Positions 5,975 to 27,940 of a stretch of DNA of 64,000 nt are shown one piece after another (the first letter of the stretch is position 1; every line of letters starts with the position of its first letter). The notes under the pieces were generated by a model. It was not told the DNA's origin and did no database searches. It worked only from the letters and a program-made list of their open reading frames with translations. Position numbers and translations under genes: made by a program. The DNA is from an uncultured virus (IMG/VR IMGVR_UViG_3300010429_001900) (Duplodnaviria; Heunggongvirae; Uroviricota; Caudoviricetes), in IMG/VR virus record IMGVR_UViG_3300010429_001900; one strand, 5' to 3'.

Positions 5975-6412
5975 TCAACCTTGTTTCGGCACGGACCGGA
6001 TGCGCGCGCTGGTGATCCGGCCGAGGTTGTCGTAGTTCACGTTGTTGATCTCGAACTCGCGAGGCGGCGCGGACTCGGGCGGCTGCACCGTGATGTGGTT
6101 GTGGTTCTCGATCGGCGTGGGCTGCACGTCGATGCGGTTCTCCACCAGGGTCTGCGGCACGTCGACCTTGTTCGTGACGTGCACCTGCGGCGCCTCCAGG
6201 CGCAGCTCGCGCAGTGCCGCGACGATGGCTGCAGGCCCGCCGCTCGCGTGCTCCTGCAGCGCCGCAACCAGCTCGCTCAGCGACGCGGCCACCTCCTCGG
6301 TGGCGTCCTTCTTCTGCCGCAACAGGTCCAGTGCATCCGCCAGGGCCGCGCTGACTTCCGCCAGCAGCAGCTCCAGGGGTTGCGAGTTGGATTCCGCCGT
6401 CATCCCATGCAC
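5975..6412 (-). CDS. Hypothetical protein
   Basis: 145 aa; helical N-terminus, then V.N.(I/V).V.P repeats; overlaps the end of the giant gene. Confidence 0.7.
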   Translation of the reverse strand: MHGMTAESNSQPLELLLAEVSAALADALDLLRQKKDATEEVAASLSELVAALQEHASGGPAAIVAALRELRLEAPQVHVTNKVDVPQTLVENRIDVQPTPIENHNHITVQPPESAPPREFEINNVNYDNLGRITSARIRSVPKQG

Positions 6413-12400: not shown

Positions 12401-13842
12401 CTCAAGTCCTGGGCCGGGTCGACATGCCGCGCCAGCGAGACATTGCCGGCGAACTGCCCGCCCCCCTCTTCAAGCCCCTCTCCGGCGGTCTCCCCAAGCG
12501 CTGCTTTGGCGGCGTGGAGTGCGCGCGCCGGCAGCCCGCCCTTGGCAATGACAGATTTCGCGGCGCCCCCGACCAGCGCGCGCTCGATGGCCGTTCCGCC
12601 AGGCACGGCATTGGCGATGACGGAGATGGCAAACGCCGCGGGCAGCGCCTCGCGCGCCGCCGTCAGGGCCAGCTCGTGCTTGACCTGGCCCTCGCTCTCG
12701 CCGGCCTGCGTGCGTCGCGCGAACTCCGGATTGGCGGCCCACTGCTCCGGGGTCTTCTGCATCGCCCGGTCGTACAGGTCGCCGACCACGTCCGCGCCCT
12801 GCTGGACTCCGTTGACGCCCACCGCGGCGGCCACGCCGAACTTGGACGCACTGGAGGCGATGGCCTGGCGCGCCGCCAGCGGCACCGGCCCGGCGGACAT
12901 CGCATTCATCATGGCGCGCGCGCCGACAACCGCAGCCGTAGCCCGTCCGGCCGCAGCCGCGGGAATCAGGGAGGCGATGTTGCTGGCGGCCAGGTCGCCG
13001 ATCAGCGCCGGGTCACTCAGCGTGGTAGCGAACGCCGCCCAGGCTTTTCCGAGCACGGAGTCTTCGGCGTCGATGGCCGCGCTGCGTGCCTCGCGCTTGC
13101 CTTGCAGCGTGGTACTCTGCAGGCCTTCCAGGTACTTCTGCGCCTCGCCGCCCGCCGTCGAGACCGCATTGTCCATGTCGCCGGTCGCCAGGCCGTAGAG
13201 GTCGCCGCCAGCCTTGAACAGGCCCACCAGGCCGGAGCCAAGCCCCAGCGCCGTATCCTTCGCGGCCTCTCCCCAGCTGCGCGGCTGCGCCGCGGCGGCA
13301 GGCTTGATGTCGATGTAGTCGTCGCTCCGCGCAGGCTGCTGAGCAGGCATTGCCGGCTGCGCGCCAAGATGCTGCGCCGCCATGGCCGCGGCAGCCACAC
13401 CCTTGCTGATGTAGTCCTTGTCCTCGGCATAGCCGACGCGCTTCAGCTCGGAGAAGAACTTCTGCGCATCGCCGCCGGCGCCCATGGCCGGCCTGTACAT
13501 GCGACCCATCAGGCCGACGAACTCGTCGCCGAAGGCGTCCGGCGTGGCGAAGGCGCGGTAGGCGTCGCGCTTGCCGTTCTGGTTGTCGGTGGCCATCGGC
13601 CCGCGGCCGCTGGGGTCCTTGATGTTGCCCAGGTTGTTCGTGCCGGGGATGACGCTCTTGCCCCAGCCGGTCTCCAGTCCCCACTGGCCGAGCAGAACCT
13701 GCGGCTCGACGCCCAGCTGGCCGGCCACGCGCTTCGCCAGCGGCAGGTACTGCTGGACGAACTCGGCGACCTTGCCGCCGCCGGTCGGTGCGCTCGGCGC
13801 CAGCAGGTCGTCAGCGGAGAAGGAGATGAGGCTTTGGCTCAT
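6400..13842 (-). CDS. Giant polyvalent internal virion protein (glucosaminidase + InPase-like + HExxH metallopeptidase-like + ART-like + DUF7178-like + C-terminal HxxxxH domain)
   Basis: N-term LGQWGLETGWG..NNLGNIK..YAED (FlgJ-type glucosaminidase); NYKKGH..SIENPRGS..HYGDVTGTKGADGDAVDVFIG (InPase-like); LHEFWH; GVHYG...IFFY; WYDGA..SLSPQKDW..KVRNFY..VTIDTHA..LQSITW; FRAAHDAFGHG..GEENAW. Confidence 0.9.
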   Translation of the reverse strand: MSQSLISFSADDLLAPSAPTGGGKVAEFVQQYLPLAKRVAGQLGVEPQVLLGQWGLETGWGKSVIPGTNNLGNIKDPSGRGPMATDNQNGKRDAYRAFATPDAFGDEFVGLMGRMYRPAMGAGGDAQKFFSELKRVGYAEDKDYISKGVAAAAMAAQHLGAQPAMPAQQPARSDDYIDIKPAAAAQPRSWGEAAKDTALGLGSGLVGLFKAGGDLYGLATGDMDNAVSTAGGEAQKYLEGLQSTTLQGKREARSAAIDAEDSVLGKAWAAFATTLSDPALIGDLAASNIASLIPAAAAGRATAAVVGARAMMNAMSAGPVPLAARQAIASSASKFGVAAAVGVNGVQQGADVVGDLYDRAMQKTPEQWAANPEFARRTQAGESEGQVKHELALTAAREALPAAFAISVIANAVPGGTAIERALVGGAAKSVIAKGGLPARALHAAKAALGETAGEGLEEGGGQFAGNVSLARHVDPAQDLSEGVGENAGMGAAGGFALGGASGALHAPRAALPPAADPLSDVKAKAAEPNSPLSKAAVSGNEAQQAAAPAQPEPQVDPITQKAQAIQQQVRDGGLIDALRGEDSPVDVKAFLNDLATASSPSTQQHQREQAMTRLEFAMGWAGQHAQDPGAAPSVAQRRTAVDREAQLQEQLAAATTEAEREQIRAQMGVNREMRLRAPAAETAANVAESAPISAQEQQGLESAALAGQVAQRKAEDDPRQAVITRALKSIEERNGVASPAEAQILSEAGLGQPYDRVDMTLAPALTEDQKLTQATGIALDKAPRSTQGQPSTEAADRAREQNERSDSRLQQLARERAAAAKARDAANAQPAEPAEPPAADAVISALKTIPVLRSAEQRALVAKARSSYTPDQMRILNDAANIPANLSATDKLALEQMRQSARRDEVATEDAVATEGAPAIPGGAGTAVNRKRRAQLDQLVAMGFDTVHQRDGVGFILSDSKTGNELALDGRADAQLARAAIAAHIDAQAHEAAASPKNDRAEPTPAQAEAGNYKKGHIANLNGVRVSIENPRGSMRRGVSPDGKAWETKLAHHYGDVTGTKGADGDAVDVFIGPRPDSDKIFVVDQRNADGSFDEHKVMMGFTSEAAAREGYLANYERGWTGLGAITEMTPAQFKAWVKSAAAKKPVSPEFGKARDGQGRDEGQRRADPAAGRQTGGRAGPGGQDQPAAQRGRAAGDAADRVVVQEPGGKRVSVALVPTPESGPAQALSALAKALGRRVRFYAARADMGGADGFTVPSAPDVIYVAADSKVSPLAVMLHEFWHTLERTLPQAAEIVKRALEGRVSADGMARFRRYYNMPGISAEGLAEEMRADLAGNVMSDPAFWTDVFAELSRESGAESKGVIARVIAALEAVLTKALDAFRGAPGYKTDQFVADVAGVRAAYKQALKAYLKDAGVSPTAMQAEILRATQAATKSTARAYTPGRDNLDGQGLGRVAGGVAAAAGGADAPAASYGRPQEGSVSATGVHYGTAARDTLSSAHYGTGLKGAERARLEGAENADIRPRIFFYVDKGSGIRPEAGVGGYAHRVQLNNLYDVWSDPLGLRKANPGANNWERALMKAGFDGYLSLDPAMPQGFAVLVGKKHSDVPVDSDAAPAPEPAELRKALMSREMRDIDLANIPGATLRAGTLVVPAEAQEQANAELERIGSSTRFSGERNLERVDPMEVSTRAPSAKPKKGFTPEDSIENLLIADFSAGLGQEGWMSAVADLVTQYPGYREAKSATTPERQLERQVRFMTDNLVWLHDQVPEEIRARSKLWYDGARKIAETMSRKYGIEPSQAAGILASLSPQKDWFMNVSLADRVAQIMAERQTFRWSGQMAETADRIFGKPVYKVAIDSIKGKSLGELELDYERAMWLRVYDEAHNPRSFMIVSPEGDLVAEARTIKGELAKPAWGGNGTIAKAVSIFRDGSFANINEQLGRKHKVRNFYNNILVPNSPNGHVTIDTHAVAAALLRALSGNSVEVMHNFSGPKSAHAGLEGSYALYEEAYRRAAAERGLLPRELQSITWEAVRGLFVPGFKPQQKNVDAVDAIWYKYRKGRLSYEDARDQALQLGGGIDAPSWAGRDPGVYAEEGDASEPGDVPGDELPGRSPDDDGGAVGGGARASATRSRGAGDGAAADRALASPERADAEALTPLPGAPRVPGFHGPDPRLVAVAEEYARDNGIDLKRQDAYAEIDEGRASRIAAAYGAMEHAPQDPRVKAAYADLIRQTRAQYDALVAAGYRFWFIDLKRPENAEYATSPWNAMRDIRASRSMGVFPTNEGFGSNAAFDPDGNPLLSDTGLTWPVGGLDGEQAPVLANDLFRAAHDAFGHGLEGCGFRAQGEENAWQAHVRLFTGDAVGAITSETRGQNSWLNYGPHGEANRNARTDDTVFADQKAGLMPEWTWTEGRVGDAAPAESARPESQKSVVEPQTVAPYNPADDTALQALLQDEQAAQDRVVELRKRLSVLNSLKKCMG
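6520..6548 (-). promoter_or_regulatory. Internal sigma70-like promoter with operator in spacer
   Basis: TTGAGC-17-TACAAT; spacer contains CACAAACGGTT. Confidence 0.6.
7374..7649 (-). CDS. Overprinted nested small protein (alternative frame of giant gene)
   Basis: AAAGGA RBS; LEFMLKRGMPLNLETYLAMNYPDGVP..AELWAEVPEPL reads like real protein while the host frame is G/D/A/R low-complexity. Confidence 0.65.
   Translation of the reverse strand: MKTQETRPSSLEAELTPLAGQDATLEFMLKRGMPLNLETYLAMNYPDGVPTMTAELWAEVPEPLRREAEEPETGPLRIARWRHQNAQMLKR
9321..9506 (-). CDS. Overprinted nested small protein
   Basis: MTTWTDKDWAGSLEESLQRLEALTRQQR; host frame becomes G/A-rich linker here; no clear RBS. Confidence 0.5.
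   Translation of the reverse strand: MTTWTDKDWAGSLEESLQRLEALTRQQRATDARKRAPYLRPVSTTEPPPETPSAPPTTAPD
10230..10373 (-). CDS. Overprinted nested small protein (47 aa)
   Basis: GGAAAGG RBS; MDKDETKDSVELIRLPDGRLVDAQGQEVRINPQRNEDALQETPPTES*, almost all codons G/C-ending. Confidence 0.6.
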   Translation of the reverse strand: MDKDETKDSVELIRLPDGRLVDAQGQEVRINPQRNEDALQETPPTES

Positions 13843-15514: not shown

Positions 15515-16459
15515 TTACCAGAACAGGCTGGCGTCCGCCCCGGACGGCAGGCCCTGAACGCCGCCGCCGCCGAAGCCGAAAAGCCCGCCGACTCCGCCAA
15601 GCCCGCCTGCTCCCTGAATCAAGCCTCCCGTCAGGCCACCAAGCCCCGCCGCAGCGTTGTTCCAGCCGTTGGCGGCCATGCCGTAGGAGTCGGCCAGTCG
15701 GTTCGCTGCGGCGCCGGTGTTGTTGAAGTAGCTCTGGTAGGCGTTGTTCATCGGGATGTTGGAGGCCAGCGTGCCGGCCAGCCCGGCGCCGGATTGCGCG
15801 CCTGCGGCGCTGCCGGAGTTCACGCTGCCGGCATAGAAGTTGGACGAGGTGTTCGGCATGTTGCGGCCGAAGTTCGCCGCGCCGGCGCGCAGCGCGATGG
15901 CCTTGTCCTCGCTGGTCTGGCGCGAGTTGTTCTTGGCCTGCGCCGTGCCCAGCGCCTGATCGGTCACCGAGCGTTGACCCATCGCTGCGAAGGCGCCTGA
16001 GTTCGGGTTGATGCCCATCCGGGCCAGGCCGCGCCAGTTCTGCCCGCGCGCGTTGGCAAACTGCTGCGACACCTCGGCCCCGGCGCGGTCGGCGCGCGAG
16101 GCGACCTTGTCCGCGCTGTCGTAGTCCATCGCGTCCGTGACGACCTGGCGCTCGACCGGCTGGAAGGTGTCTTCGTAGTATTCGCGCTGGTCGCGGGCGA
16201 AGTCGCGCTGCTCGCTGGACGTCTGCAGCATGTCGTCGGCCAGACGCGTGCGCAGGGCGGCGTCAGCCTTGGCGGCCGGCCTGGTGTCCTCTTCGTAGAC
16301 CTTCTTGTTCCACGCGAACTGGTCGCGCGCCAGGTCGTTCTGCTGGTCGGAGGCGTCGCGCTGCGCGTCGACGGCGTCCCCCTGCGCCTTGGCGCCCTTG
16401 TAGGACGAGTAGGCCGCCCCCACGGCGCTCGTGACGACGGCTGCTGCAATAACGCTCAT
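15515..16459 (-). CDS. Putative DNA pilot/ejection protein
   Basis: GAGGA RBS; MSVIAAAVVTSAVGAAYSS..., Q/A-rich coil, LARMGINPNSG, G-rich C-terminus. Confidence 0.75.
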   Translation of the reverse strand: MSVIAAAVVTSAVGAAYSSYKGAKAQGDAVDAQRDASDQQNDLARDQFAWNKKVYEEDTRPAAKADAALRTRLADDMLQTSSEQRDFARDQREYYEDTFQPVERQVVTDAMDYDSADKVASRADRAGAEVSQQFANARGQNWRGLARMGINPNSGAFAAMGQRSVTDQALGTAQAKNNSRQTSEDKAIALRAGAANFGRNMPNTSSNFYAGSVNSGSAAGAQSGAGLAGTLASNIPMNNAYQSYFNNTGAAANRLADSYGMAANGWNNAAAGLGGLTGGLIQGAGGLGGVGGLFGFGGGGVQGLPSGADASLFW

Positions 16460-17019
16460 GCTGCGATCCTCTGTGTGGCGCCGATGTGGCGCTGGTACTC
16501 GTCGGGCGTGCGCGCGACCAGGAAGTCTTCCAGTGCCCTGGGCTCGCTGCGCTCGGGCGGCAGCTCGCCGGCCCAGGCGTCCATGTTGTGCACCGTGGTC
16601 CAGACCACGTCCTCGTGCACGAAGCCGACCTTGCGCACGCCAGGCTTGCCAGGGAAGGTGCATGGCGCGACCAGCTCGACGATGCCGCCATGCTCGCCGA
16701 GCATCGAGATGCGCCCGGCCGACAGCACGTTGATGTGCGGCCGCTTCTGGATCTCGCCGATGGCAAAGGTGCCGGCGGGCAGGCGCAGCTCGCGCGCGTA
16801 CATGCCGTCGGCGTGGTGGTGGGTGAGCGGCAGGTCGGCCGTCAGGCCCGCGGCCAGCATGTGCGCCAGCAGCGTCTCGACGCGCTGCGCGAGCGCGGCG
16901 GGCTCGATCGGCGCCACGGACTGGAACAGCTCGGCGAGCAGTGCCGCAGGCGGAGCCGCGTCCAAGAGGACCATCGCTCCAGCGGTTGGTTCGTCAACGA
17001 TCTGCTCGTCCTGGGTCAC
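16456..17019 (-). CDS. Cupin-like protein of the virion gene cluster
   Basis: HHHADGMYARELRLPAGT..G..QKRPH..VWTTVH; GTG start with GAGG RBS. Confidence 0.7.
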   Translation of the reverse strand: MTQDEQIVDEPTAGAMVLLDAAPPAALLAELFQSVAPIEPAALAQRVETLLAHMLAAGLTADLPLTHHHADGMYARELRLPAGTFAIGEIQKRPHINVLSAGRISMLGEHGGIVELVAPCTFPGKPGVRKVGFVHEDVVWTTVHNMDAWAGELPPERSEPRALEDFLVARTPDEYQRHIGATQRIAA

Positions 17020-17053
17020 ATCGCGCGCCTCATCCTGGATACGGCTGCGTATC

Positions 17054-17088
17054 ACAAACAGATTGTAGCCAACCCAACCGTGCGTCAA
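17054..17088 (-). promoter_or_regulatory. Putative promoter with operator
   Basis: TTGACG-15-TACAAT (short spacer) overlapping ACAAACAGATT. Confidence 0.45.
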
Positions 17089-17333
17089 CCGCCGATCGGA
17101 TGGCCGCTGGTGCGGGCCGTGCCGCCGGCCACGACCACGGCCTGTGGCGCACCCACGAAGGGCTGCAGGGATTGCGCCACGGCGGCCGAAAATCCGGTGA
17201 TGGGCGCGTTCGCCGTCGCGCTCGACCTGATGAGCGGAAAGAGGGGGTGCACTGCGTCGACAGACCCGGACAGCGGCGCAGCAGCGCTCTGCGATGCAAG
17301 CGCAGACGTCTGGATGGCGGCGACGAAGGCCAT
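17085..17333 (-). CDS. Small hypothetical protein
   Basis: 82 aa, operonic. Confidence 0.55.
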   Translation of the reverse strand: MAFVAAIQTSALASQSAAAPLSGSVDAVHPLFPLIRSSATANAPITGFSAAVAQSLQPFVGAPQAVVVAGGTARTSGHPIGG

Positions 17334-17336
17334 GCG

Positions 17337-18197
17337 TCACTCGTAGATCGCGGCGAGGCCGAACGAGGCGGACGTGTAGCCTGAAACAGTCAAGCCCAGG
17401 CTACCCAAGGACAGATAGGTTCGCGACACTCCGCCAACAAGCGCCACGGAGAACGTGGTCAGCTTCGGCGCATCGGCGGGCGCCACGCCGCATGCAAACG
17501 CAAACGGCTGTACGTCGGGCAAGTTCAAAAAAAACTGGTAGGCTTGGTAGTTGCCGCCCGCGAGGCTGCTGGCCGGCAGGCCGGGGAAGGCGGCGTAGCC
17601 ACTGCTCACGTCTGAGAATGTCTCTGCGGTCGCGGCCGTGCGCACGGACTGCGCGGTCACCCCTGAGGAGCTGTTGCTCCTGATAACCATGAACCCGACC
17701 GACGTGGGCGCGCCGCTGCTGTCTACGGACTTGCCGACGACGCATACGCCCATTGGGTAGGAGCCGGACCACGAATTCATCTTGAAGACAATCGACAGCG
17801 AGTTGTTTGTGACCGACAGATAGGTCGCGTAGTTTGTTGTCGCTGACGCCGCCACGTTGCCCGAAAAGAAAACAGAGCGCGTGCTCTGCTGCCCGGTCAA
17901 GCTCCCGGAGCCGTTGCTGCCGGTGCCCACGGTGATCCACATATTCGACAGCGACACCCCGCCAGCGGTGCCGAACTCGAACTTGAAATAGAGTGAGCTG
18001 TCGGGCAGCCTCCAGATTTCGTAGCCTGCGGCCGTGTTCGTGCCCGGGCGGACGGCCGTCCCCCAGTTGATCTGCCCGGTGTCGGCGGTCTGCACCAGGC
18101 CGGCGAGGGCAAGATTCACCCCCAGCTCCGACCCCCAGGCCCTGAAGCCGGCGTCGGTGGTGTGATCGAGGGGGGAGGTGTAGGTTCTCGTCGTCAT
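17337..18197 (-). CDS. Tail fibre-associated/receptor-binding protein
   Basis: MTTRTYTS...GLVQTADTGQINW...YFKFEFGT; S/T/G-rich, lower GC3; ATGA overlap. Confidence 0.7.
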   Translation of the reverse strand: MTTRTYTSPLDHTTDAGFRAWGSELGVNLALAGLVQTADTGQINWGTAVRPGTNTAAGYEIWRLPDSSLYFKFEFGTAGGVSLSNMWITVGTGSNGSGSLTGQQSTRSVFFSGNVAASATTNYATYLSVTNNSLSIVFKMNSWSGSYPMGVCVVGKSVDSSGAPTSVGFMVIRSNSSSGVTAQSVRTAATAETFSDVSSGYAAFPGLPASSLAGGNYQAYQFFLNLPDVQPFAFACGVAPADAPKLTTFSVALVGGVSRTYLSLGSLGLTVSGYTSASFGLAAIYE

Positions 18198-19363
18198 GGG
18201 GTGATTTCCAGGAAGATGCGCAGCCCGGTGAAGCCCGAGCACGACGTCATTGAAAACTTCAGGATGTCGCCGGCCGCGACGGACGTCGTCCAGCCGGTGA
18301 GCACGGTGCTGCTGTACTTGTGGCCGGCCGCGATGTTCGGCGGCGCGGCCGCGACGATCGAGTCACCAGCCCCGGGCGGGTAGCTCGCGTAGACATCCTT
18401 CTTGATGTCGATCACGCACGAGCCTGGCCCGCCCTCGCCGAGCACGACGACCTTGGTGATCGTGCCGGCCCGCGGGCAATGCACGCAGGGCTCGTCGGCG
18501 CCGACCGGGTCGATGGCCGCGCCGCCGCCGGACCAGCTGGCGCCGCGCACGTCGATCGGATCCGGGCCGCCTCCGCCGCCTGCCACGACCGACCCTTCCG
18601 CCGGCGCCAGGCGCCACTCCTCCGCAGCCTCGTCGAAGACGGCCACCGCGCGCACCACGGTGACGGCGCCCGGCGTGTCGTCGACGACGGCGTCCGTCAG
18701 CCACATGTCGCCGAAGCCGACCGTGTGCCCGCCGACCGCGTCCTGCGTCAGCACCAGGCGGTACTCGGCGCCCTCCATCAGGCTGTCGATGTCCTCGATC
18801 ACGCAGTCCTGGTCCACCAGCAACGTGAAGGCGTTCGATGCGCGCCCGTCGATCCACACATTGCCGTCTGCCTCGACCGACAGGTCGACGCTCTGCACCG
18901 TCTGCGCGCCGATCCAGTGGTTCGGCCGCTCGACGATGTCGGCACGGGTCAGCCACGGGCGCGCCGCCAGCGCGGCGATCTCGTCGGCCAGCTCCTGCAC
19001 GCGCCGGGTGAAGAGTGTTCGCTGGTCCGTCAGTGTGCGCTCCAGCTGGCGCATCGCGTTCTCCAGCCCGCTCAAATCGACCGGCTGGCCCGCGGAATCG
19101 GCCGACTCGACGGTCGGCGCGGCGCGGGCCTTCAGCGCAGCGATCTCCGTGTTCAGCGCCTCCAGCCGCTGCGCCAGGTCGCGCTCGGTGACGGCACGCT
19201 CGAAGCCGTCGCCGCGCGCGCCCAGCCGCACCTCGACCCATTCGCGCAGCGCCTCCAGCGCCTGGCGGGCCGCCGGGTCGGCGACGCGCGAGGCCTGCAG
19301 CCCGGGCAGCCGGGCCGGCGCGTTGGCATGCGGGCCGCGCCGCGTGAGCTTGCCGCTGGTCAC
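18194..19363 (-). CDS. Tail protein (coiled coil plus fibre-type modules)
   Basis: EWVEVRLGARGD N-terminus, coiled coil, WIGAQT..LTQDAVGGHTV, C-terminal GSCVIDI..TGWTTSVAAGDILKF. Confidence 0.75.
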   Translation of the reverse strand: MTSGKLTRRGPHANAPARLPGLQASRVADPAARQALEALREWVEVRLGARGDGFERAVTERDLAQRLEALNTEIAALKARAAPTVESADSAGQPVDLSGLENAMRQLERTLTDQRTLFTRRVQELADEIAALAARPWLTRADIVERPNHWIGAQTVQSVDLSVEADGNVWIDGRASNAFTLLVDQDCVIEDIDSLMEGAEYRLVLTQDAVGGHTVGFGDMWLTDAVVDDTPGAVTVVRAVAVFDEAAEEWRLAPAEGSVVAGGGGGPDPIDVRGASWSGGGAAIDPVGADEPCVHCPRAGTITKVVVLGEGGPGSCVIDIKKDVYASYPPGAGDSIVAAAPPNIAAGHKYSSTVLTGWTTSVAAGDILKFSMTSCSGFTGLRIFLEITP

Positions 19364-19403: not shown

Positions 19404-20381
19404 CTACGGCCGGCGCGCCCAAGAGACGCGAAGCGTCAACGACAGCTGCTTGGTGCCGATCTTGTTGAAGGTCGGCGAGAACTGGAACTGGTAGACGCCC
19501 AGACTGGACGGCAGGACGACGGACGTGACGTCGCCGATGTTCCCGTAGAGCAAGTCCCAGAAGTGCAGGATGTCCCGCTGGTGGCTGGTGGCCGAGTAGG
19601 CCTGCGGCGAGCCGATCAACGGCCCGTTGTTGGCTGTGCCGGAGGGGGTGCTGGTGATGGCGCCGAGGGTGCCGGCGTAGACGATGGGGTAGTGGGACGG
19701 GTTGGCGCCGATTTGGCTGAGCGGGTAGGGGCACCAGGCGTTGACGCCCGTGACATAAGCCGCGCGCGCCGTGACGGTGTACTCCACGCCGGACATCGTG
19801 AGGGCGAACGTCGTGTCTGTGAGTGGCGGGTACAGGCGCAGCGTGTAGGTCACGTCCAGCACCTCGTCGGACAGGACGGTGACGGTCGTAGGCTCGCCCT
19901 CGCCGTCCAAGACCAAGGCGCGAGACCAGAGCGTCGACCCGGTGGACTCCCAGCCGATGCCGACCTCGCTGATGTTTCCGGCGGCAGCCCCCGTGGCGAA
20001 GCGGTAGGTGGTGGTGTACCAGCCGAAGTACGGCGCGCTTGCCTGCGCGCCGTAGGCGTTGAAGACGGTGTTGTTGGTGGCGGCGACCGGGATGGCGAGG
20101 CTCGTGTCGCCCACGCTCGGCTCGGTAGACCCGCTGCCGGCGCGGCACCACCCAATGATCGCGCCGGTGCCCCAGCGCTCCAGCCCGATGTCGGTGATCA
20201 GGTTGTCGAATTCCGCGAGGAACCGGCGCGACCCGTCCGGGCGCACCGCTTCCATCTTGAAGTGCCCCGAAACGGAGCCGCCCAAGGTGAGCACGGCAGG
20301 CCGGTCGCGCGACCGACGCAAGTCGGAAGAGGGCAGCATCAGCCCATGCTTACGCGAAAACGAGAAGTCGCTCTGGTTCAT
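19404..20381 (-). CDS. Tail structural protein
   Basis: FDNLITDIGLE..G.GSTEP..GNISEVG..LWSRAL..DVTYTLR, a phage tail-protein pattern. Confidence 0.75.
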   Translation of the reverse strand: MNQSDFSFSRKHGLMLPSSDLRRSRDRPAVLTLGGSVSGHFKMEAVRPDGSRRFLAEFDNLITDIGLERWGTGAIIGWCRAGSGSTEPSVGDTSLAIPVAATNNTVFNAYGAQASAPYFGWYTTTYRFATGAAAGNISEVGIGWESTGSTLWSRALVLDGEGEPTTVTVLSDEVLDVTYTLRLYPPLTDTTFALTMSGVEYTVTARAAYVTGVNAWCPYPLSQIGANPSHYPIVYAGTLGAITSTPSGTANNGPLIGSPQAYSATSHQRDILHFWDLLYGNIGDVTSVVLPSSLGVYQFQFSPTFNKIGTKQLSLTLRVSWARRP

Positions 20382-20827
20382 GTAAGGGTTCCTGCAACGA
20401 TGAGGGGCGCCCCGGCGTCGATCGACTCCGGTGCCATGGTGGTGGTGATCAGGATCGTCCGCAGCGAGCCGCTGACGATGACGCCGTCGCCGTCGACAGC
20501 CTCCTGCAGGGACGTCGAGCGCAGAATCTCGCGCAACACGCCAGAGGGAATCACGACAGACGCGTCGATGGCTTCCAGCAAGGCCGTCGACTTCAGGACT
20601 TCGCGCAGCAGGCCGGACACGATCACGGCGTCGGCGGCGTCGAGGCTGTCCACCGGCGGCATCAGGATGCGCATGCGCGACACGACGCCGGCGGCATCCA
20701 GCGCCTCGTCCACCTCGACGGCGTAGGGCCGGCTGGTGAGGACCGCGCTGGTCGGCACGAGATCGCCGAGCGGCGCCGACATCGTAGCGATGCGCCTCGT
20801 GTGCAGGTCGAATCGGTAGATCTTCAT
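20378..20827 (-). CDS. Tail-associated protein
   Basis: TSRPY motif and three (S/E)GxLR repeats; N-terminus MKIYRFDLHTRRIA. Confidence 0.75.
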   Translation of the reverse strand: MKIYRFDLHTRRIATMSAPLGDLVPTSAVLTSRPYAVEVDEALDAAGVVSRMRILMPPVDSLDAADAVIVSGLLREVLKSTALLEAIDASVVIPSGVLREILRSTSLQEAVDGDGVIVSGSLRTILITTTMAPESIDAGAPLIVAGTLT

Positions 20828-21792
20828 GTGGCGCTCAGCTCCGGCGCGCTACCGGCCAGCGTCACGGTCGTGCAGCGCACCGCCGACTCGACCTCGATCT
20901 CCAGCCGCCGCCAGCGGCCCGCGGGGACGCGCGTCGGCGTGCGCGTGGCGGTCGTGATCTCGTGCACCAGCACGTCGTCGCCGTAGAAGCGCAGCGTCAC
21001 CGCCCCGCCAAGGTCGCCATTCACGCGGATCCAGCCGAAGCTCTGGCCGCGGGCCGGCGCCGTCAACCTGGAACGCCAACGTCCGCCCATCAGGGCTCCG
21101 CCGAAGAGCGGGAGCACCTCGCTGCCTCCAGCCGCATACAGCGTGTCCGTCAGCAGCGCGCTGTGCGCCGCCGTGACTTCCCCCTGCTCGACGACCTCGT
21201 CGCTGAGGAACTCGAACTGCATGCGCAGGCCACGGCTCATGCCGAGCCGCCCGATGCGCGTGGTCCCCGAGGGGATCGGGCCGAGCGGCCTTTCGACGCC
21301 GAACCGGTCGCGCTGCTGGCGCTCGAACATCTCGCCGTCGCGCAGGTAGACGAACACGACGTCCGACGCGCCGAGCTGCTTCGGGCGCTTGTCGTCCAGC
21401 GATGCGCGCGGGCTGGTCACACCGGGGAACGAGGTCGTCACCTGCGCGCCTGGCACCGAGTCGTACCAGCGCAGCTTGGCCATGCCGGCGGCCACGTAGG
21501 CCACGGCCGGGCGCATGTTCTGGTCGAAGGTCAGGCTCAGCTCGGTGATGCCCGGGTCGCTGAAAAGCACGATGCCGGGGTCGCCCAGCAGCGCAGCCGC
21601 CTCGGTGGCGATGCGCACGTCGTTGCCGTCGACCCAGGCGCGCCAGGCCTGCACCATCAGCCCGTCGTTCGGGTTGTTCAGCCCGGTGCCGCCCAGCTCG
21701 CGGTCGACCAGCATGTCGTCGCGCTCGATGTCGTCCGGCGGCAGCCACTCGGCCGGCAGGGGTGTCGACGAAAGCAGGTGGTCAGGCAGCAC
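20824..21792 (-). CDS. Tail protein fused to a stabiliser C-terminal module copy
   Basis: MLPDHLLS..ELSLTFDQNMRP..LDDKR..QRDRF, followed by LLTDTLY...VTLAGSAPEL. Confidence 0.75.
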   Translation of the reverse strand: MLPDHLLSSTPLPAEWLPPDDIERDDMLVDRELGGTGLNNPNDGLMVQAWRAWVDGNDVRIATEAAALLGDPGIVLFSDPGITELSLTFDQNMRPAVAYVAAGMAKLRWYDSVPGAQVTTSFPGVTSPRASLDDKRPKQLGASDVVFVYLRDGEMFERQQRDRFGVERPLGPIPSGTTRIGRLGMSRGLRMQFEFLSDEVVEQGEVTAAHSALLTDTLYAAGGSEVLPLFGGALMGGRWRSRLTAPARGQSFGWIRVNGDLGGAVTLRFYGDDVLVHEITTATRTPTRVPAGRWRRLEIEVESAVRCTTVTLAGSAPELSAT

Positions 21793-22213
21793 GCGCGGCC
21801 CCCGCGAGCTTCAGCTCCTCGGCCGATCCGGCCAGCGTCAGCGTCGCCGCCCGGATGTCTCCCTCCAGCTCGACTTCCCACTCGCGCCCGCGGCCCGCCG
21901 GCACGCGCAGCATCACGTCGGCCGCGGCGACCACGCTGTGCAGCAGCGCACCGTCGCGGTACAGCCTCACCGTCACAGCGCCGTCGAAGTCGCCGCCGAC
22001 CATCATCCAGCCGAAGCCCTCGATGTCGTTGCGCACGAACACCGGCGAGCGCCAGATGCCGTCCTGCATGTCGCCACGGTACAGCGGCAGCACGTCCACG
22101 CCATCGGCCAGGTACAGCGTGTCGGTCAGCAGGTCCGGCATCGCCGCGGTGGCCGTCGCGTCGAGCACGGCAATGCGCTTGCTCGCCAGGTCGAAGCGGT
22201 AGGCGATCGTCAA
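21782..22213 (-). CDS. C-terminal part of split tail stabilisation protein
   Basis: YRFDL..LLTDTLY..WRSPVF..LRVPAG..WEVELEG..TLAGSAEEL. Confidence 0.7.
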   Translation of the reverse strand: MTIAYRFDLASKRIAVLDATATAAMPDLLTDTLYLADGVDVLPLYRGDMQDGIWRSPVFVRNDIEGFGWMMVGGDFDGAVTVRLYRDGALLHSVVAAADVMLRVPAGRGREWEVELEGDIRAATLTLAGSAEELKLAGAARAA

Positions 22214-24822
22214 GGCGCCGGCTCCGGCACGAACAGGTGGTACACCCCTTCAGCGAAGGCGCCGAAGCAGTTCGGCAGGTCCAGTGCCTGCCAGTCATCG
22301 CGGTCGAATGCGCCCTGCGTCATCAGCTCGACGCCCTGCGGGCCGGCCAGGCACAGGCCATCCGGGCTGGCGTAGACCACGCCGCCTTCCATGCTGGCGA
22401 TCGTGCGCTTGGAGGCGCAGGCCTGCGTCGACTCCATCTTCTGCAGGCTCATCGACGCGCTGTCGGCGCCGCTGGCGTAGTACGGGTGGCCCTCGGTCAG
22501 CACCACCAGCGTCTGCCCGAACACACCCAGGCCGACGATGTTGAACTCCAGCGGCTGCTGGTACTCCACCGGCCAGGCATGACCCTCGTAGGGCTCGCAG
22601 AAGCACAGCGTCTTGCCGAAGAAGCCGGCCATGATGCCGTTGGGCAGGCCGACCAGGCCGATCAGGTCTTCCGGCGGCTCGGCCCAGGTCATCGTCGGGC
22701 AGGGTTCCTGCAGCTCGCCCTGCGTCAGGCTGTCGCTGTAGGTCAGCACATCCGCGTCGAAGTAGTTGAACTCGCCGTCCTCGATCACCGCATTGGCGGC
22801 ATTCTTGTCGGCGATCAGCTGCCACGCGGCGCCGCTGTTCGTGGTCGAGCTGCGGTACAGCCTCCAGCCGACGATGAAGCGGTCCACCGGCGGCGCAGGC
22901 ACGGTCACCGTGACGCTGTCGTTGCCGTCCAGCTCGAGCAGCACCGACGCCGGGGACACGCCGCTCTCCTCGCCGCGGTCGCTGACCCAGGTGAAGAGGT
23001 AGGCCCGCGTCTCGACCTCGCGCTGCACCTGCGTCGGCAGCGCCGCCTCGACATCGGCGCCGTACTTGGTGCTCACCAGTTGGCGCACCTCGTCGTCGAT
23101 GTCGGCGTAGAACGCGCTGAGCGCGTCCGACGCTGCGGTCGCGCGCCGCACGGCCGTGGCGAAGCCGGCCGCCTTGGAGCTGGCCTCGGTGTTGCTCGCG
23201 CCGTAGCTGGCGATCAACTGCAGCAGGGCCAGCTGCGCGGCCTCCAGGTCTTCGGTCAGGCCGAGTGATGGGGGCGCGGCGCCCTCGTACAGCGCATCGA
23301 CATCGGCGACGATGTCGTCGATCACGTCGTTGTCGAGTAGCTGGCCCGGCGGGTCTTCGGTGTTCTGCAAGCCCTGCAGCGCCGTGGTGAAGGCGGCATC
23401 GTTCAGATCCAGCCCGGCGGCCCGGATGCGCCGCACCGGCACCGCCCACCAGCTCGACCCGCCGTGCGTCACGATGCGCCCGCCCAGCGAAGCGTCCTGC
23501 AGATAGGCCTCGTTGGCGTTGTACATCGCGTACCCGGTGTCGGTCGCGGTCATGCGCGCCAGGTAGGCGTAGTCGCGCGACTCCGTGGTCGGCAGCGCCG
23601 GCGAGGTGGCCGTGCCGTGCGCCAGCCAGTAGCCGATGCCCGCGGCGTCCGGGTCGAGGCCGGTGATCGGCAGCGGCGTCGTGCCTGGAGCGAAGTCCGC
23701 GCCGGCCGGGTAGCGCGCGATGTTGGTCAGCTGGATGTCGGCGACGTTGCCCGACATGTTCTCGCAGATCTTGCTGACCTGCAGCTCCTTGGCCCAGTCC
23801 GCCGACCCGAAGCGCACCCCGTTCATCCAGAACGTCAGGCGCCCGACGCCCATGCCGGCGCCGTCGCTGCAGATCACCAGCCGGCCCCAGGTGTTGGCGG
23901 GCAGGATGACGGCGCCGCCGTCCTTGACGATGCGCTTGGTGCTCCGGAAGGTGGCGTTGTAGCCCATGCGCGCCAGGATGTGGTCGGTGCCGCCGGTCTC
24001 CAGCCGGATCTTGCTGATCGAGTCCTCGAAGCCCTGCGAGTGGATCGTGACGGCCGTCAGGTCATTGGGCAGCCGGATGCGCGCGCTGAGGGTCCAGGCC
24101 ATGCTGGTCTCGATGTCCGGCACGCTCAGGCCATGGTCGGTGCCGAAGGTGAAGATGCCGTACTTCGAGGCGGCGGCGAACGGCCCGTCGGTGGCCGCCG
24201 AGATCGAGGCCGAGCCATGCACGCCAGGGACGACGGCGCGGGGGCCGACGTCGCTGAAGTTGGTGCTCATGGGGAAGTGCCAGACCACGTCCTCGCGGAA
24301 CGGATCCAGGCCGGCCAGGTTCGCCGGCGCGCCAGGCGTCGGCGCCGCCCCTCTCGGCGTGGCGCTGTCGTTGGCCTGGGCCAGCGTGGCGATCTCTCCG
24401 GCCAGGCGAGCGACCTCCTCGTCCGCCTCGTCGGTCGTGAACTCGTCGCTGACCACCAGGTCCGCGGTCGGTGCGGCGGTCGGTGCGGGCACGCCCAGTC
24501 GACGATAGGCGCCGCCCTGCCAGGCCTCCGGGTAGGCCGCGCGGCCCGTCAGGTAGACGCGCTCGAAGCCGGCGTCGTTGATCTGGCCGTTGACGTAGTT
24601 CACGTCCTCGGTCGAACTCAGCCACACGCCCGACGGCGTGCGGAACAACGACTTCGTGCCGGCAGCCACCGCGGCCACCGCAGCGCCCGGGCCGCGCAGG
24701 GGGCGGAAGTCGCCGAAGCGCAGGTCCAGGTTGTGCGCCTCCTGGGCCGACGAGCCGGGCAGCCGGCGCTTCTGCACCGACGGCAGGATGCCGCCGAACT
24801 CGTTGATGTGCAGCACCGACAT
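22210..24822 (-). CDS. Tail tubular/stabilisation protein (P22 gp10-like) with LamG-like insertion
   Basis: FGGILP..LP..AQ.A.N N-terminus; ETRAYLFTWVS..GEES; GLVGLPNGIMAGF..LCFCEPY..HAWP; QACASKRTI. Confidence 0.8.
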   Translation of the reverse strand: MSVLHINEFGGILPSVQKRRLPGSSAQEAHNLDLRFGDFRPLRGPGAAVAAVAAGTKSLFRTPSGVWLSSTEDVNYVNGQINDAGFERVYLTGRAAYPEAWQGGAYRRLGVPAPTAAPTADLVVSDEFTTDEADEEVARLAGEIATLAQANDSATPRGAAPTPGAPANLAGLDPFREDVVWHFPMSTNFSDVGPRAVVPGVHGSASISAATDGPFAAASKYGIFTFGTDHGLSVPDIETSMAWTLSARIRLPNDLTAVTIHSQGFEDSISKIRLETGGTDHILARMGYNATFRSTKRIVKDGGAVILPANTWGRLVICSDGAGMGVGRLTFWMNGVRFGSADWAKELQVSKICENMSGNVADIQLTNIARYPAGADFAPGTTPLPITGLDPDAAGIGYWLAHGTATSPALPTTESRDYAYLARMTATDTGYAMYNANEAYLQDASLGGRIVTHGGSSWWAVPVRRIRAAGLDLNDAAFTTALQGLQNTEDPPGQLLDNDVIDDIVADVDALYEGAAPPSLGLTEDLEAAQLALLQLIASYGASNTEASSKAAGFATAVRRATAASDALSAFYADIDDEVRQLVSTKYGADVEAALPTQVQREVETRAYLFTWVSDRGEESGVSPASVLLELDGNDSVTVTVPAPPVDRFIVGWRLYRSSTTNSGAAWQLIADKNAANAVIEDGEFNYFDADVLTYSDSLTQGELQEPCPTMTWAEPPEDLIGLVGLPNGIMAGFFGKTLCFCEPYEGHAWPVEYQQPLEFNIVGLGVFGQTLVVLTEGHPYYASGADSASMSLQKMESTQACASKRTIASMEGGVVYASPDGLCLAGPQGVELMTQGAFDRDDWQALDLPNCFGAFAEGVYHLFVPEPAP

Positions 24823-24825
24823 CGG

Positions 24826-26058
24826 TCAGGCCTTCCAGGACACCCAGCTGGTGTCGGCGCGCTCTTTCGTCGGCTCGCGCTCCAGGTGCACAGGCGCGCT
24901 GAACGTGATGCCGTGCTGCGGGTGCGTCAGCCACAGCGCCTGGCGCGGCGGCTCGAAGCCGAAGTTGTTCGCGTTGGCGTACTCGTCGTAGCCCTTGAGC
25001 GAGCCGTTGACGATCAGCCGCTGCAACTGGATCAGCTGGTGCCAGTGGCCCATCAGCATGGTGTCGTAGGCCATGCCGATCTGGCCGTTGCGCGAGCGCT
25101 TGCGGTGGTCGCCGCGGATGATCGGGCCGAGCGCGCCGATCATGCCGTCGCCGCCGCGGAACTGGTCGCCGTGCGTCAGCAGGTAGCGATGGCCCATCAC
25201 GCTGTACAGCGCGTCGGGGCCGTCGGGGATGAAGAAGGTGACGCGCTTGTCGCCCTCGAAGTGCTTGGCCAGGAACTGGTACAGAAGCCAGTCGAAGCTG
25301 GTGTAGTTGCGGCCCTTGGCGCGGATCTTGTGCGTGTTGCGTCCATGGTTGCCGCCGACGCACGGGATGAAGACCTTACCGAACTCGTCGACCAGCGCCT
25401 TGATCGCCCACACCAACGCGCCCCAGAGGTCGATCACGATCTTCATGATCTCGGCCTCGTTGGTGGCCATCAGCTCCTCGTGGATGTCGCCCGACACCAT
25501 GTCGCCACCCAGCGCGAAGACGATGCCCGGGTAGCCGCCCTTGGAGCTGATGTGGTTGCGCAGCAGGTCGACAGCCACCTCGACCATCGTGCGCAGCCGC
25601 TCGTGCGCGATGGCGACGTTGAACTGGTTGACGCCGTTGATCTGGCCCGGGTCGACGATCTCGCCCCAGTGGAAGTCGCTGGCGAACAGCGTGGGCACGC
25701 CAGCGCCGTGGAAGGCCTTGGTCGGGCGCATCAGCCATCCAGGCGCCTCGGTCGCGCCAACCGCCTCGGTCAGGCCGATGATCTTGCGCTTGACGTAGTC
25801 GGCGTCCAGGGCTTCGCGGCTGGCGAACTTCAGCTCGGTCTCCAGCTCGCGCACGCGATCGGCCAGCTTGTCCTTCGGATCCACGCCGGCGTCATGCGAC
25901 TGCGGCAGGCGCAGGGCGGCCGCATTCAGCCGCGTCTGCAGGCCGCCGCGGCTGATGCCCAGCGCGCGGGACGCCGCCACCTGGTTGCCGTTGTGCAGAG
26001 CAAGCACGCGCAGCGTCTCGCGCAGCGCGTCGTCGGTGAGCTTCTGTGTTGCGGCCAT
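24826..26058 (-). CDS. Calcineurin-like metallophosphoesterase with N-terminal HTH
   Basis: SDFHWG, GGDMVSG, GNHGR, THGD, GHWH motifs; N-terminal NQVAASRALGISRGGL. Confidence 0.85.
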   Translation of the reverse strand: MAATQKLTDDALRETLRVLALHNGNQVAASRALGISRGGLQTRLNAAALRLPQSHDAGVDPKDKLADRVRELETELKFASREALDADYVKRKIIGLTEAVGATEAPGWLMRPTKAFHGAGVPTLFASDFHWGEIVDPGQINGVNQFNVAIAHERLRTMVEVAVDLLRNHISSKGGYPGIVFALGGDMVSGDIHEELMATNEAEIMKIVIDLWGALVWAIKALVDEFGKVFIPCVGGNHGRNTHKIRAKGRNYTSFDWLLYQFLAKHFEGDKRVTFFIPDGPDALYSVMGHRYLLTHGDQFRGGDGMIGALGPIIRGDHRKRSRNGQIGMAYDTMLMGHWHQLIQLQRLIVNGSLKGYDEYANANNFGFEPPRQALWLTHPQHGITFSAPVHLEREPTKERADTSWVSWKA

Positions 26059-26065
26059 CTGGTCC

Positions 26066-26485
26066 TTAGAGAGGCTTGCGCCAGTAGATCGAGCCCTCCC
26101 CTCCCCAGGGGGAGGACGGCTCGTAGATGCGGTAGCCGCAACGGATCAGCGAATTGGCGCTGGCCGGGTTGCAGTAGGTGTAGGTGATGGCCCAGCGCAT
26201 GCCGAGGCGGCGCGCGTGGCGCTCGCGTACGCGGATCATTCGGGCCTGCAGCCCCAGGCCGCGGGCCTTGGGGATGACGCCGGCGCGCACCAGGTAGACG
26301 GCGTCGACGAACTTCGACGACGGCTGCATGCCGCAGAAGCCGAGCGGCAACTCGGTGTCGTCGCGCATCACCCACCACCAGCCGGCGCCGAACTCGGGGA
26401 ACGCGTCCGACGGGAAGGTGTCCAGGTGCAGCCGCTTGAGCAGCGCGATGTCGTCGGTGCGTTCGATGCTGACGCTGCGGGGCAT
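26066..26485 (-). CDS. GNAT N-acetyltransferase
   Basis: V..KARGLGLQ (motif A), N.ASANSLIRCGY; alternative start at 26494. Confidence 0.85.
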   Translation of the reverse strand: MPRSVSIERTDDIALLKRLHLDTFPSDAFPEFGAGWWWVMRDDTELPLGFCGMQPSSKFVDAVYLVRAGVIPKARGLGLQARMIRVRERHARRLGMRWAITYTYCNPASANSLIRCGYRIYEPSSPWGGEGSIYWRKPL

Positions 26486-26492
26486 GGCTGTC

Positions 26493-26521
26493 ATGCTAGG
26501 AACTTACTGGTGGTTGTGCAA
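26493..26521 (-). promoter_or_regulatory. Sigma70-like promoter for GNAT/phosphoesterase pair
   Basis: TTGCAC-17-TAGCAT in an AT-richer gap. Confidence 0.55.
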
Positions 26522-26536: not shown

Positions 26537-27178
26537 TCAGAAGCCGAAGGTCCGCGGCGCCACGCGCAGCGAGCCTGGCGCGCCGTCGTGCAGCACCTTG
26601 ATGCGCGCCTCGGTCTTGGCGCCGGCGAAGCGCGTGCCGTTGAAGGCGCCCAGTTCCGGGTTGCTCCACGGCTTGCGCGGTTGCAGCATCAGCCTGGCCA
26701 GCGCGCCCTGGATCACGGCCTCGCCGTACGGGGCCATCAGCGCGTCAGGCAGTTCGGTGGCGTCGTCCGTCGGCTCGACCGCGACGCGTAGCAGCAGGGG
26801 CGCGCCGGCGGCCTGCGACGGGATCGGGAACACGCGCACCGAGTCCTCGCCCTGCTGGCTGTTGAACAGCACCGGCTCGGAGCCCGTGGCCGTATGCCAA
26901 CCCGGCAGCGTGCGCGAGATCTCCGCCAGCGTCTTCGGCTTCAGCTCGCGGCCGTTCACCCAGGCCGCCATGACGGCCACGGCCCTGGAGCCCGCCGGCA
27001 CGACGAGCGTGTAGGACGCCTGGTCGTCGACCAGCGGCACGGGGTCTGGGAAGATGTTCCACACCATCGTGTCGCGGCAGAACTCGCCGGCCGATTGGAT
27101 CAGCGCGCGGGCCGCCACCGGGTCCGGGCATTCCGGCGCATCGAGCAGCAACTGCGGGAGGATGTCATCGATCAGCAT
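26537..27178 (-). CDS. Head-tail adaptor protein
   Basis: PECP..A.EFCRDT.VW..GALARLM..P.KPWSNP pattern. Confidence 0.75.
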   Translation of the reverse strand: MLIDDILPQLLLDAPECPDPVAARALIQSAGEFCRDTMVWNIFPDPVPLVDDQASYTLVVPAGSRAVAVMAAWVNGRELKPKTLAEISRTLPGWHTATGSEPVLFNSQQGEDSVRVFPIPSQAAGAPLLLRVAVEPTDDATELPDALMAPYGEAVIQGALARLMLQPRKPWSNPELGAFNGTRFAGAKTEARIKVLHDGAPGSLRVAPRTFGF

Positions 27179-27181
27179 GCG

Positions 27182-27940
27182 TCAGGCCCCGCTCGGGATG
27201 GGCAGCGCGCGCAGCTTCGGGTCGGGCAGACCCATGGCCACGGCCTGCAGGTTGATGCTCGCGACGAACATCTGCGAGAAGCTCGAGGCCAGCTGGCCCG
27301 AGCCGACGAACTCGGCGTCCTTCATGTACGCGCGAGCAATCACGTAGTTCACGACGTCGTCGAGGTACTTGTCGTCGACCGACAGCTTCGTGGTGCTGGC
27401 TCCGCCGGCCGTGTAGTCGCCGGCGGTCGGGATGTCCAGCGGATCGGGCAGCCAGGGCAGCTCGATCCAGACATCGGTTCCGACAGGCGCGCCCGGGCTC
27501 ACGTAGAAGACCTTCGGCGTCTGCGGGTCGTAGACGATCTGCGTCACCGCGGTCGCGGAGCGCGTGTGCCACAGCGGGTCGCCCTGGTCCAGCGCGCTGC
27601 GCTCGACCGTGCGGATGGCGCGGCCCGGCGTCGTGCCGTTGGCGCCCATGTTGCGGATCGGTGCCGACAGCAGGCGGTTGCCGCGCATCGATGCCGAGCC
27701 GTCGCCGGGCAGCAGCCTGGCGGACGGCACGGTCTCGATGGACTGGCGGGTGCCGGCCTCCAGCTTGAAGGCATCCACCCGCGAGCACGAGTGCGGCAGG
27801 TACTTCGCCAGCACGCGCTGCGCGTCGTTCAGTGCGTGGACCAGGGATGTCTGGTCCCAGCGCAGGAACTGCGGGCTCATGTCCTGCAGCTGGTCGCTGA
27901 CGCGCCGCAGCGCCTCGCGCACAAGCGTGGTGGATGCCAT
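27182..27940 (-). CDS. Adaptor protein (DUF6682-like)
   Basis: LQD..RW...L...LNDAQR..GTRQS..YDP..PK.FYV.P..YVIARAYMKDAE. Confidence 0.75.
   Translation of the reverse strand: MASTTLVREALRRVSDQLQDMSPQFLRWDQTSLVHALNDAQRVLAKYLPHSCSRVDAFKLEAGTRQSIETVPSARLLPGDGSASMRGNRLLSAPIRNMGANGTTPGRAIRTVERSALDQGDPLWHTRSATAVTQIVYDPQTPKVFYVSPGAPVGTDVWIELPWLPDPLDIPTAGDYTAGGASTTKLSVDDKYLDDVVNYVIARAYMKDAEFVGSGQLASSFSQMFVASINLQAVAMGLPDPKLRALPIPSGA

Follow-up and report, generated by a model that had tools for sequence, protein, structure and literature searches.

In short-tailed phages, receptor-binding proteins usually attach through folded N-terminal domains at the junction between adaptor and nozzle. The nozzle proteins gp12 of T7, gp10 of P22 and gp8 of Sf6 are single chains, and the fibres or spikes of these phages dock as separate folded domains. 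Here we describe the tail genes in a stretch of 64,000 nucleotides (nt) from an uncultured virus of the Caudoviricetes (IMG/VR record IMGVR_UViG_3300010429_001900; the whole stretch is called the window). Its nozzle protein stops before the last part of the nozzle fold, this part is encoded as a detached protein of 143 amino acids (aa), and a second copy of the same part is divided between two proteins of a fibre-gene cassette. A fibre is probably plugged straight into the nozzle by this divided second end piece.

By sequence and fold, the nozzles of Ralstonia phage GP4 (8jov chain A, 577 aa), Bcep22 (gp67), Itty13 (gp09) and phi24B (gp57) belong to the same family as that of the window; their neighbourhoods also agree in having two adaptors of the SU10 type, a gene for a GNAT acetyltransferase close by and one for a giant virion protein. 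The accessible part of the phi24B preprint describes a hexameric nozzle under two adaptor rings and equates the nozzles of GP4 and phi24B. Split nozzles have been described as well. In Pseudomonas phage A1002, according to the accessible text of the paper (PLoS Biol 2026, PMC13730344), the nozzle is split into a nozzle-rope (gp39) and a nozzle-base (gp42); platform-C and propeller-C of one protein complete the truncated platform and propeller of the other by added beta-strands, and the piece that bears platform-C also bears a fibre-docking element. For Xanthomonas phage PhiXacm4-11/CP2, the accessible part of a preprint (bioRxiv 10.64898/2026.02.16.706137) reports a two-subunit nozzle and four fibre proteins; this split (gp30/gp31) concerns a nozzle of another, T7-type family. 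Our literature searches turned up split nozzles, and none of the texts found described an end-module that is duplicated and distributed over fibre proteins.

The locus lies in a phage genome rich in guanine and cytosine (~69%) with genes for terminase, portal, major head protein and two SU10-type adaptors. Downstream of the adaptors follow six abutting or overlapping minus-strand genes, encoding proteins of 870, 143, 322, 149, 325 and 389 aa. We call the 870-aa protein the core (N) and the 143-aa protein the plain end-module, with parts p1 and p2. A, B and C are fibre-cassette families: A is the repeat family of the 149-aa protein, B the family of the 325-aa protein and C that of the 322-aa protein's N-terminal domain. 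The second copies of p1 and p2, borne on the 149-aa and 322-aa proteins, are p1' and p2'.

22210..24822, minus strand: nozzle core (N), 870 aa, by matches to phrog_511 and 8jov_A
21782..22213, minus strand: plain end-module p1+p2, 143 aa, by phrog_511, 8jov_A and its AlphaFold2 (AF2) model
22163..22204, minus strand: p1, residues 4-17 of the 143-aa protein, predicted to form a beta-hairpin (motif YRFDLASKRIA)
21809..22135, minus strand: p2, residues 27-135 of the 143-aa protein
20824..21792, minus strand: C-p2', 322 aa, by matches to phrog_4950 and to the C-terminal positions of phrog_511
20833..21174, minus strand: p2', the duplicated module in the 322-aa gene, residues 207-320
20378..20827, minus strand: p1'-A, 149 aa, by the p1' motif and a phrog_12940 match
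20783..20821, minus strand: p1', residues 3-15 of the 149-aa protein
19404..20381, minus strand: B, 325 aa, middle protein of the fibre cassette, by phrog_4176 (E 7.2e-73)

An earlier reading of the sequence alone (the original prediction) had given the open reading frames (ORFs) of the 870-, 143-, 322- and 149-aa proteins in agreement with these coordinates, all on the minus strand. Successive genes for the 870-, 143-, 322- and 149-aa proteins overlap by 4, 11 and 4 nt; the core's TGA stop shares letters with the TTG at which the 143-aa gene starts (TTGA), and likewise the 322-aa gene's stop with the ATG start of the 149-aa gene (ATGA).

Compared with the described systems, the locus combines familiar and unfamiliar traits. 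Whereas GP4-type nozzles are single chains of ~580 aa, the chain here is short of its last hairpin, carries an insertion of ~480 aa and would be completed in trans; also unlike in GP4-type nozzles, two fibre proteins between them carry the end-module a second time. A1002 is similar by description, in that the nozzle fold is shared out over neighbouring genes and, judging from the gene numbers, the fibre genes gp40 and gp41 lie between the nozzle genes. As far as the accessible text goes, however, A1002 has one complement where two are encoded here, and its fibres bind the rope-like dock by sheet augmentation without nozzle-fold pieces, whereas here the fibre proteins carry such pieces. The cassette of the window is homologous to the last three fibre genes of CP2 (149-aa repeats to the C-terminus of gp27, 325-aa protein to gp28, residues 1-193 of the 322-aa protein to gp29), genes that we mapped to gp37-gp39 of the preprint by gene order and size only. 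Unlike here, the CP2 cassette hangs on a T7 gp17-like proximal fibre in the accessible part of that preprint, and its proteins are without p1' or p2'. T7 gp12, P22 gp10 and Sf6 gp8 show a general likeness in platform, propeller and C-terminal platform part, but no detectable sequence similarity. A split completed by added strands is thus known from A1002 and PhiXacm4-11; new here is a plain module next to a second one opened by a multi-gene fibre cassette.

Sequence comparisons point to the 870-aa protein as the core of a hexameric tail nozzle of the GP4/Bcep22 type (phrog_511). It matched phrog_511 with E 1.4e-95 and PDB chain 8jov_A (GP4 portal-tail complex, 6 chains) with E 8.1e-48, residues 603-861 aligning to 125-369. 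BLASTP against Itty13 gp09 (583 aa) aligned residues 1-120 to 1-118 and 604-861 to 131-374, with ~480 extra residues between the two blocks. The regions of the core are N-terminal platform strands (~1-120), the insertion of ~480 aa and a beta-propeller (~600-866). The chain ends directly after the strand GVYHLF and so contains neither the final strands of the propeller nor the C-terminal platform domain; with the stop after residue 870, N-terminal platform, propeller and C-terminal platform are not united in a single polypeptide. Within the window, a hidden Markov model (HMM) of the core matched the 870-aa ORF alone and revealed no second core-like acceptor. The original prediction had named this protein a tail stabiliser; the name found no support, the matches to 8jov_A and phrog_511 being to tail nozzles. 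The 580-aa nozzles do not have the insertion (residues ~125-600). In the contig of a relative (L011), a separate 283-aa ORF (8700-9551) matches a part of it, HMM positions 153-391 (E 2e-6), and one segment of the insertion occurs twice in the L011 core.

By the same kind of evidence, the 143-aa protein has both parts that are missing from the core: it is the C-terminal end, detached, of what is usually a single chain. That this piece is normally fused had been stated in the original prediction and is borne out by phrog_511 (862 positions), which matches the 870-aa protein and, at positions 720-859, the 143-aa protein (E 5.3e-15). The latter also matched the last 66 residues of 8jov_A (510-575, E 1.1e-4). 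Its AF2 model, with a predicted local distance difference test score (pLDDT) of 74.3, had 8jov_A as its best match [Foldseek E 4.2e-5; VIA-align Z 11.6, root-mean-square deviation (rmsd) 5.5, 112 aligned; next row 8.4] and weak fold matches to Sf6 (7sg7_S, Foldseek E 0.025) and P22 (8eap_D, VIA Z 6.5). In the model, p1 forms a hairpin (strands 4-8 and 13-17) followed by an unconfident linker, and p2 consists of a second hairpin (LLTDTLY...VLPLY, low confidence) and a confident beta-sandwich of the platform type. Since the canonical nozzle chain, as described in the accessible part of PMC13730344, closes with the final strands of the propeller and, after them, the platform's C-terminal part, p1 and the second hairpin would be these strands and the sandwich the platform part. 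Confidence was low at residues 20-48 of the lone 143-aa model, and pLDDT was <50 at residues 199-234 of the model of the 322-aa protein (pLDDT 74.2), which fits strands needing partners. Across 15 clusters of stand-alone homologues, p1 was conserved at the N-terminus.

Both parts of the end-module recur in the window. As originally noted, the second part is found again as the C-terminus of the 322-aa protein: BLASTP aligned residues 6-135 of the 143-aa protein to 192-320 with 60/130 identities (46%, E 3e-33), and residues 207-320, the p2 copy, match positions 738-859 of phrog_511 (E 1.6e-15). On the side of the 322-aa protein, the alignment starts with a few residues (QFEFL) that still belong to that protein's N-terminal domain, as its final strand; because free-standing C homologues (~200 aa) end on this strand, the p2' homology begins near residue 205, in agreement with the segmentation originally proposed. 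The first part of the 143-aa protein recurs, as likewise noted, at the N-terminus of the 149-aa protein, where residues 5-19 align to 4-18 with 9 of 15 identities (pairwise E 3e-4). Residues 2-15 of the 149-aa protein hold the p1' hairpin motif (KIYRFDLHTRRIA). A regular expression for the p1 motif, run on the six-frame translation of the window, matched in two places only, both of them ORF N-termini, and no further ORF of the window carries a p1-type motif. In an alignment of the 149-aa family, p1' was among the best-conserved parts, and its residues F6 and D7 were invariant in 7 sequences.

Apart from p1' and p2', the three cassette proteins represent three adjacent genes of the CP2-type distal cassette families (phrog_12940 C-terminus, phrog_4176 and phrog_4950). 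Residues 30-148 of the 149-aa protein form a beta-helix-like repeat domain; the protein matches positions 267-391 of 397 in phrog_12940, and with tblastn residues 29-148 match the C-terminus of CP2 gp27. Residues 7-197 of the 322-aa protein are a predicted lectin-like partial beta-propeller (phrog_4950, E 9.3e-45). A sequence search of this protein against PDB chains returned nothing; the model of its N-terminal domain looks like three to four blades of a beta-propeller of the kind seen in lectins and sialidases. With VIA-align, residues 25-200 scored Z 10.7 against the PLL3 lectin (rmsd 4.0, 153 aligned), 10.3 against AAL and 9.9 against RSL, and non-lectin propellers scored nearly as high (sialidases, 10.6). 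The accessible part of the CP2 preprint (bioRxiv 10.64898/2026.02.16.706137) predicts a beta-helix and a lectin-like three-bladed propeller in the cassette proteins, the latter in agreement with our model. The A-B-C cassette is widespread, with 78 viral loci in our first scan alone; Xanthomonas phages of the CP2 type and a siphophage-like prophage of Pseudomonas have it too. The window differs from this usual A-B-C order in having C-A-B; A has only ~25 residues ahead of its repeats, as against 107 to ~1000 aa in other loci, and C neither ends after the propeller nor bears an unrelated distal domain, but carries p2'. In the relatives, B always adjoins A.

We searched 1.84 billion representatives with the 143-aa protein and obtained 362 matches at E <=0.001, the best 150 of which were classed with purpose-built HMMs. 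These best 150 comprised 97 fused nozzles or fragments, 15 free p1+p2 proteins of ~136-167 aa, 13 C+p2 proteins, 11 short, p2-only or unclear sequences and 14 others. Fused homologues read through the break (for example ...EGVYYLF-turn-YSFDL...LLTDTLY), so the break point is a turn between strands. A sequencing error or fresh frameshift was considered as the origin of the split and rejected, as the split is present in L001, L098 and L099 (99-100% identity) and in diverged relatives, where the core protein ends at the same place. By these sequences the split is old and recurrent.

Viral and metagenome contigs were then scanned and annotated with our own HMMs, repeat loci of the same contig being counted once; a 12-row alignment proved too variable for the locus scan, and a 6-row one worked but found few loci. 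Besides the window's phage, 8 distinct relatives (37-47% identity) carried the full set (core, p1+p2, p1'-A, B and C-p2'); with the window included, the genes stand in three different orders. Six relatives have core, p1'-A, B, C-p2', p1p2 (L012, L014, L015, L020, L049, L113), two have core, p1p2, p1'-A, B, C-p2' (L011, L120), and core, p1p2, C-p2', p1'-A, B was seen in the window's phage only (also recovered as L001, L098 and L099). Four shorter contigs (L102, L104, L114, L116) break off and are concordant as far as they reach. In these and in all full-set loci, p1' was found within the first six residues of A. C-p2' occurred in 8 of the 78 loci of the first scan, corresponding to the window's phage and 6 others. 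Beside fused nozzles, by contrast, C was without p2' in 5/5 loci (L093, L060, L004, L005, L079) and A without p1' in 2/2 where A was found; both pieces are also absent from the cassette in CP2-type phages and siphophage-like prophages. Presence of the pieces whatever the state of the nozzle would have told against the original prediction; we found p1' and p2' only beside nozzles split in this way, in the window and 8 distinct relatives, an outcome in favour of the prediction. A scan of cellular-genome contigs with the 322-aa protein gave only C homologues without p2', with search patterns that fit close relatives only, so that absence is not implied. The module is absent from the nearest record (G001).

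The order shared by six relatives is the usual A-B-C order of CP2 and the Pseudomonas prophage flanked by p1' and p2'; it looks as if an A-B-C cassette had been set into an end-module, with p1 on one side and p2 on the other. Three variants bear on the place of insertion. A 404-aa representative (P0027) consists of p1, ~290 aa and then p2. In L103 (5186-8360), a short core (618 aa) is followed by a single 568-aa chain made up of p1', a linker rich in Ala and Gly, C and p2', then by a 365-aa protein that starts with a p1'' motif and ends like B, and then by an ORF with p2 and without p1; this contig has two decorated end-modules and no plain one. In L046 (4323-8112, low GC), the core is fused to A repeats (562 aa) and followed by B, by C without p2' and by a 174-aa protein with p2 at residues 79-170, and no plain module was seen in the 14 kb examined. 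These variants show the loop after p1 to be an insertion point. A different recurrent nozzle split was observed in L121 (=L088), L127, L128, L130 and L131, where one part (340-444 aa) comprises the N-terminal platform and the insertion and the other (541-584 aa) the propeller with p1p2 fused; nozzles of this clade are therefore broken at more than one place.

For the docking of p1' we modelled a four-chain complex of core 1-125, core 596-870 and residues 195-322 of the 322-aa protein, with the 149-aa protein as partner. The ipSAE, which is the model's own confidence score and not a measurement, was 0.83, 0.84 and 0.76 in three runs, and the best of 3 controls gave 0.00, the value also obtained with core 596-870 replaced. 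In the tool's calibration, 116/157 solved complexes and 2/215 mismatched pairs had reached the mark. The runs agreed in at least 59% of contacts, with a partner pLDDT of at least 42. The confident interface was confined to residues 1-21 of the 149-aa protein, which contact core 859-867, core 10-14 and 28-35, and residues 204-206 and 220-235 of the 322-aa protein; modelled residues 2-7 lie against core 860-865 and residues 12-15 against core 10-14 and 28-35. Structure prediction on core, 322-aa and 149-aa parts, a check suggested with the original prediction, thus returned a confident interface. Of the interpretation given there, the detached C-terminus and, in the model, strand complementation (0.83 against 0.00) held up, and the stabiliser name did not.

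We consider it reasonably likely that a spare end-module of the nozzle houses the fibre cassette and that docking is by strand complementation. The core would stop one hairpin short of a full beta-propeller and lack the C-terminal platform domain, and the missing end would be supplied in trans by either of two alternative protein sets. One set would be the plain 143-aa protein with the p1 hairpin and p2. The other would be the module's second copy, split by the three-gene fibre cassette at the loop that joins one hairpin to the next, so that the first cassette protein (149 aa) starts with p1' and the last (322 aa) ends with p2'. In the modelled geometry p1' would pair with the last strand of the core and with N-terminal platform strands, and p2' would pack alongside; the nozzle fold would then incorporate the fibre complex (149 + 325 + 322 aa) at both of its ends. 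We infer a mixed nozzle, in which some of the six core subunits take the plain module and others the fibre-bearing one. Observed directly are the homologies of the parts, the break in the nozzle gene, the joint occurrence of the pieces and the changes in gene order, while the docking of p1' and p2' on the core is a predicted geometry.

Several points weigh against this proposal. There is one acceptor site per core subunit, and two complements are encoded per genome. The model may have passed because p1' resembles p1, whose place is known from fused nozzles, and it suggests that p1' is able to fit rather than proving that it docks; its small alignments (7-10 rows) and four-chain set-up differ from the tool's calibration, and past residue 21 the 149-aa partner was poorly folded (pLDDT 42-49). 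No cultured phage in INPHARED has C-p2' (in tblastn with the 322-aa protein, no record covers p2'). The p2-domain tree leaves p2 and p2' unseparated, with same-genome pairs in L011 (98/95) and L020 (86/87). Such pairs could reflect gene conversion or repeated duplication and say nothing firm on function.

If the 143-aa protein filled all six sites, p1' and p2' could instead leave the core untouched and re-form the small module with each other, as a zipper that joins the 149-aa and 322-aa proteins, the resulting pseudo-module docking elsewhere, for example on the 12-fold adaptor ring beside the true platform domains. All genomes with p1'/p2' keep a complete plain module or a second set, which is unexpected if the fibre-borne set suffices; adaptor rings have 12 subunits as against 6 nozzle subunits and thereby offer spare equivalent surfaces (phi24B preprint, accessible part), and in our model p1' touches p2' as well as the core. 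However, the score of 0.00 upon replacement of core 596-870 implies that the model sees no stable p1'-p2' pair without the core. Moreover, p1' keeps the conserved residues of p1 (F6, D7), facing the last core strand in the model, and L046, with its core fused to A, showed no plain module over the 14 kb. We regard a zipper as unlikely.

Still less probable in our view is that the two complements differ in time or particle, the 143-aa protein acting as a placeholder during tail assembly, to be exchanged later for the fibre-borne set, or a burst mixing fibre-bearing and fibre-less virions. One site with two ligands bearing equivalent motifs would suit such a scheme, as would the overlapping and probably translationally coupled genes, which suggest that both complements are made together; the two decorated sets of L103, with no plain one, do not fit a simple placeholder. 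We think it very improbable that the repeats are recombination scars or the split a recent or programmed −1 frameshift, with roleless extra pieces. The 143-aa frame is indeed open for 13 codons upstream of its start, in −1 relation to the core frame, and tail-fibre regions are mosaics. But the layout is kept in the 8 distinct relatives despite 37-47% identity, with p1' well conserved, and the best 150 representatives include 15 stand-alone p1p2 and 13 C+p2 clusters. A programmed −1 frameshift joining the 870-aa and 143-aa proteins was rejected: inspection of the junction revealed no slippery heptamer before the core stop, and 6 relatives have p1'-A after the core instead, in varying frame relations.

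The genes that flank the nozzle and cassette genes include the following.

18194..19363, minus strand: 389-aa protein, an ORF after the cassette
26537..27940, minus strand: upstream pair of adaptor genes for proteins of 213 and 252 aa, by Pfam SU10_adaptor (E 3.8e-9 and 7.8e-19)

By analogy, the adaptor pair suggests that the locus belongs to a tail of the GP4/phi24B type, with its two adaptor rings. A Pfam search returned nothing for the seven tail proteins, and no tRNA genes were found in the window. The 389-aa protein has a conserved N-terminus (...RRGP.AN...LP.LQ..R..D...Q.A.EALREWVEVRL) common to the gene after the module in all relatives, where its total length varies from 124 to 558 aa, and may be another tail-anchored fibre or needle. 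Between adaptors and nozzle lie a GNAT acetyltransferase gene (26066-26494, minus strand; Pfam E 8.4e-5), which adjoins the nozzle in Bcep22 and Itty13 too, and a 410-aa gene of the phrog_284 'exonuclease' type with a helix-turn-helix (24826-26058, minus strand). Downstream of the tail genes, a 2480-aa ORF (6400-13842, minus strand) recalls by position and size the giant virion proteins Bcep22 gp75 and phi24B gp47 (2811 aa, a proposed ejection protein). Another receptor-binding protein may be encoded by a 294-aa ORF (16456-17340, minus strand), which at residues 166-254 matches families of short tail fibres and fibre adhesins (phrog_12032, E 6.4e-27).

Fibre attachment in this phage would be a completion of the nozzle fold, and the three-gene cassette would act like a domain inserted into a loop. 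Tentatively, and with more doubt than conviction, we suggest that the nozzle is a programmed hetero-oligomer whose core accepts interchangeable end-cartridges, either plain or opened to carry receptor-binding proteins. The single-chain cartridge of L103, the two decorated cartridges in that one contig and the core-fibre fusion of L046 would fit such a system. If so, the occupancy of the six positions, for example an alternating 3+3 arrangement forced by fibre bulk, would set the number and kind of fibres, and a swap of cartridges would alter host range and leave the DNA channel untouched. If confirmed, nesting of the cassette in the end-module would be a second, independent case of nozzle evolution by splitting, after A1002 and PhiXacm4-11, and would account for fibre genes sitting within the nozzle gene cluster. 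Binding modules could also be grafted onto a podophage tail with the two pieces, a hairpin of 13 residues and a module of ~115 residues, as a compact and portable pair of tags.

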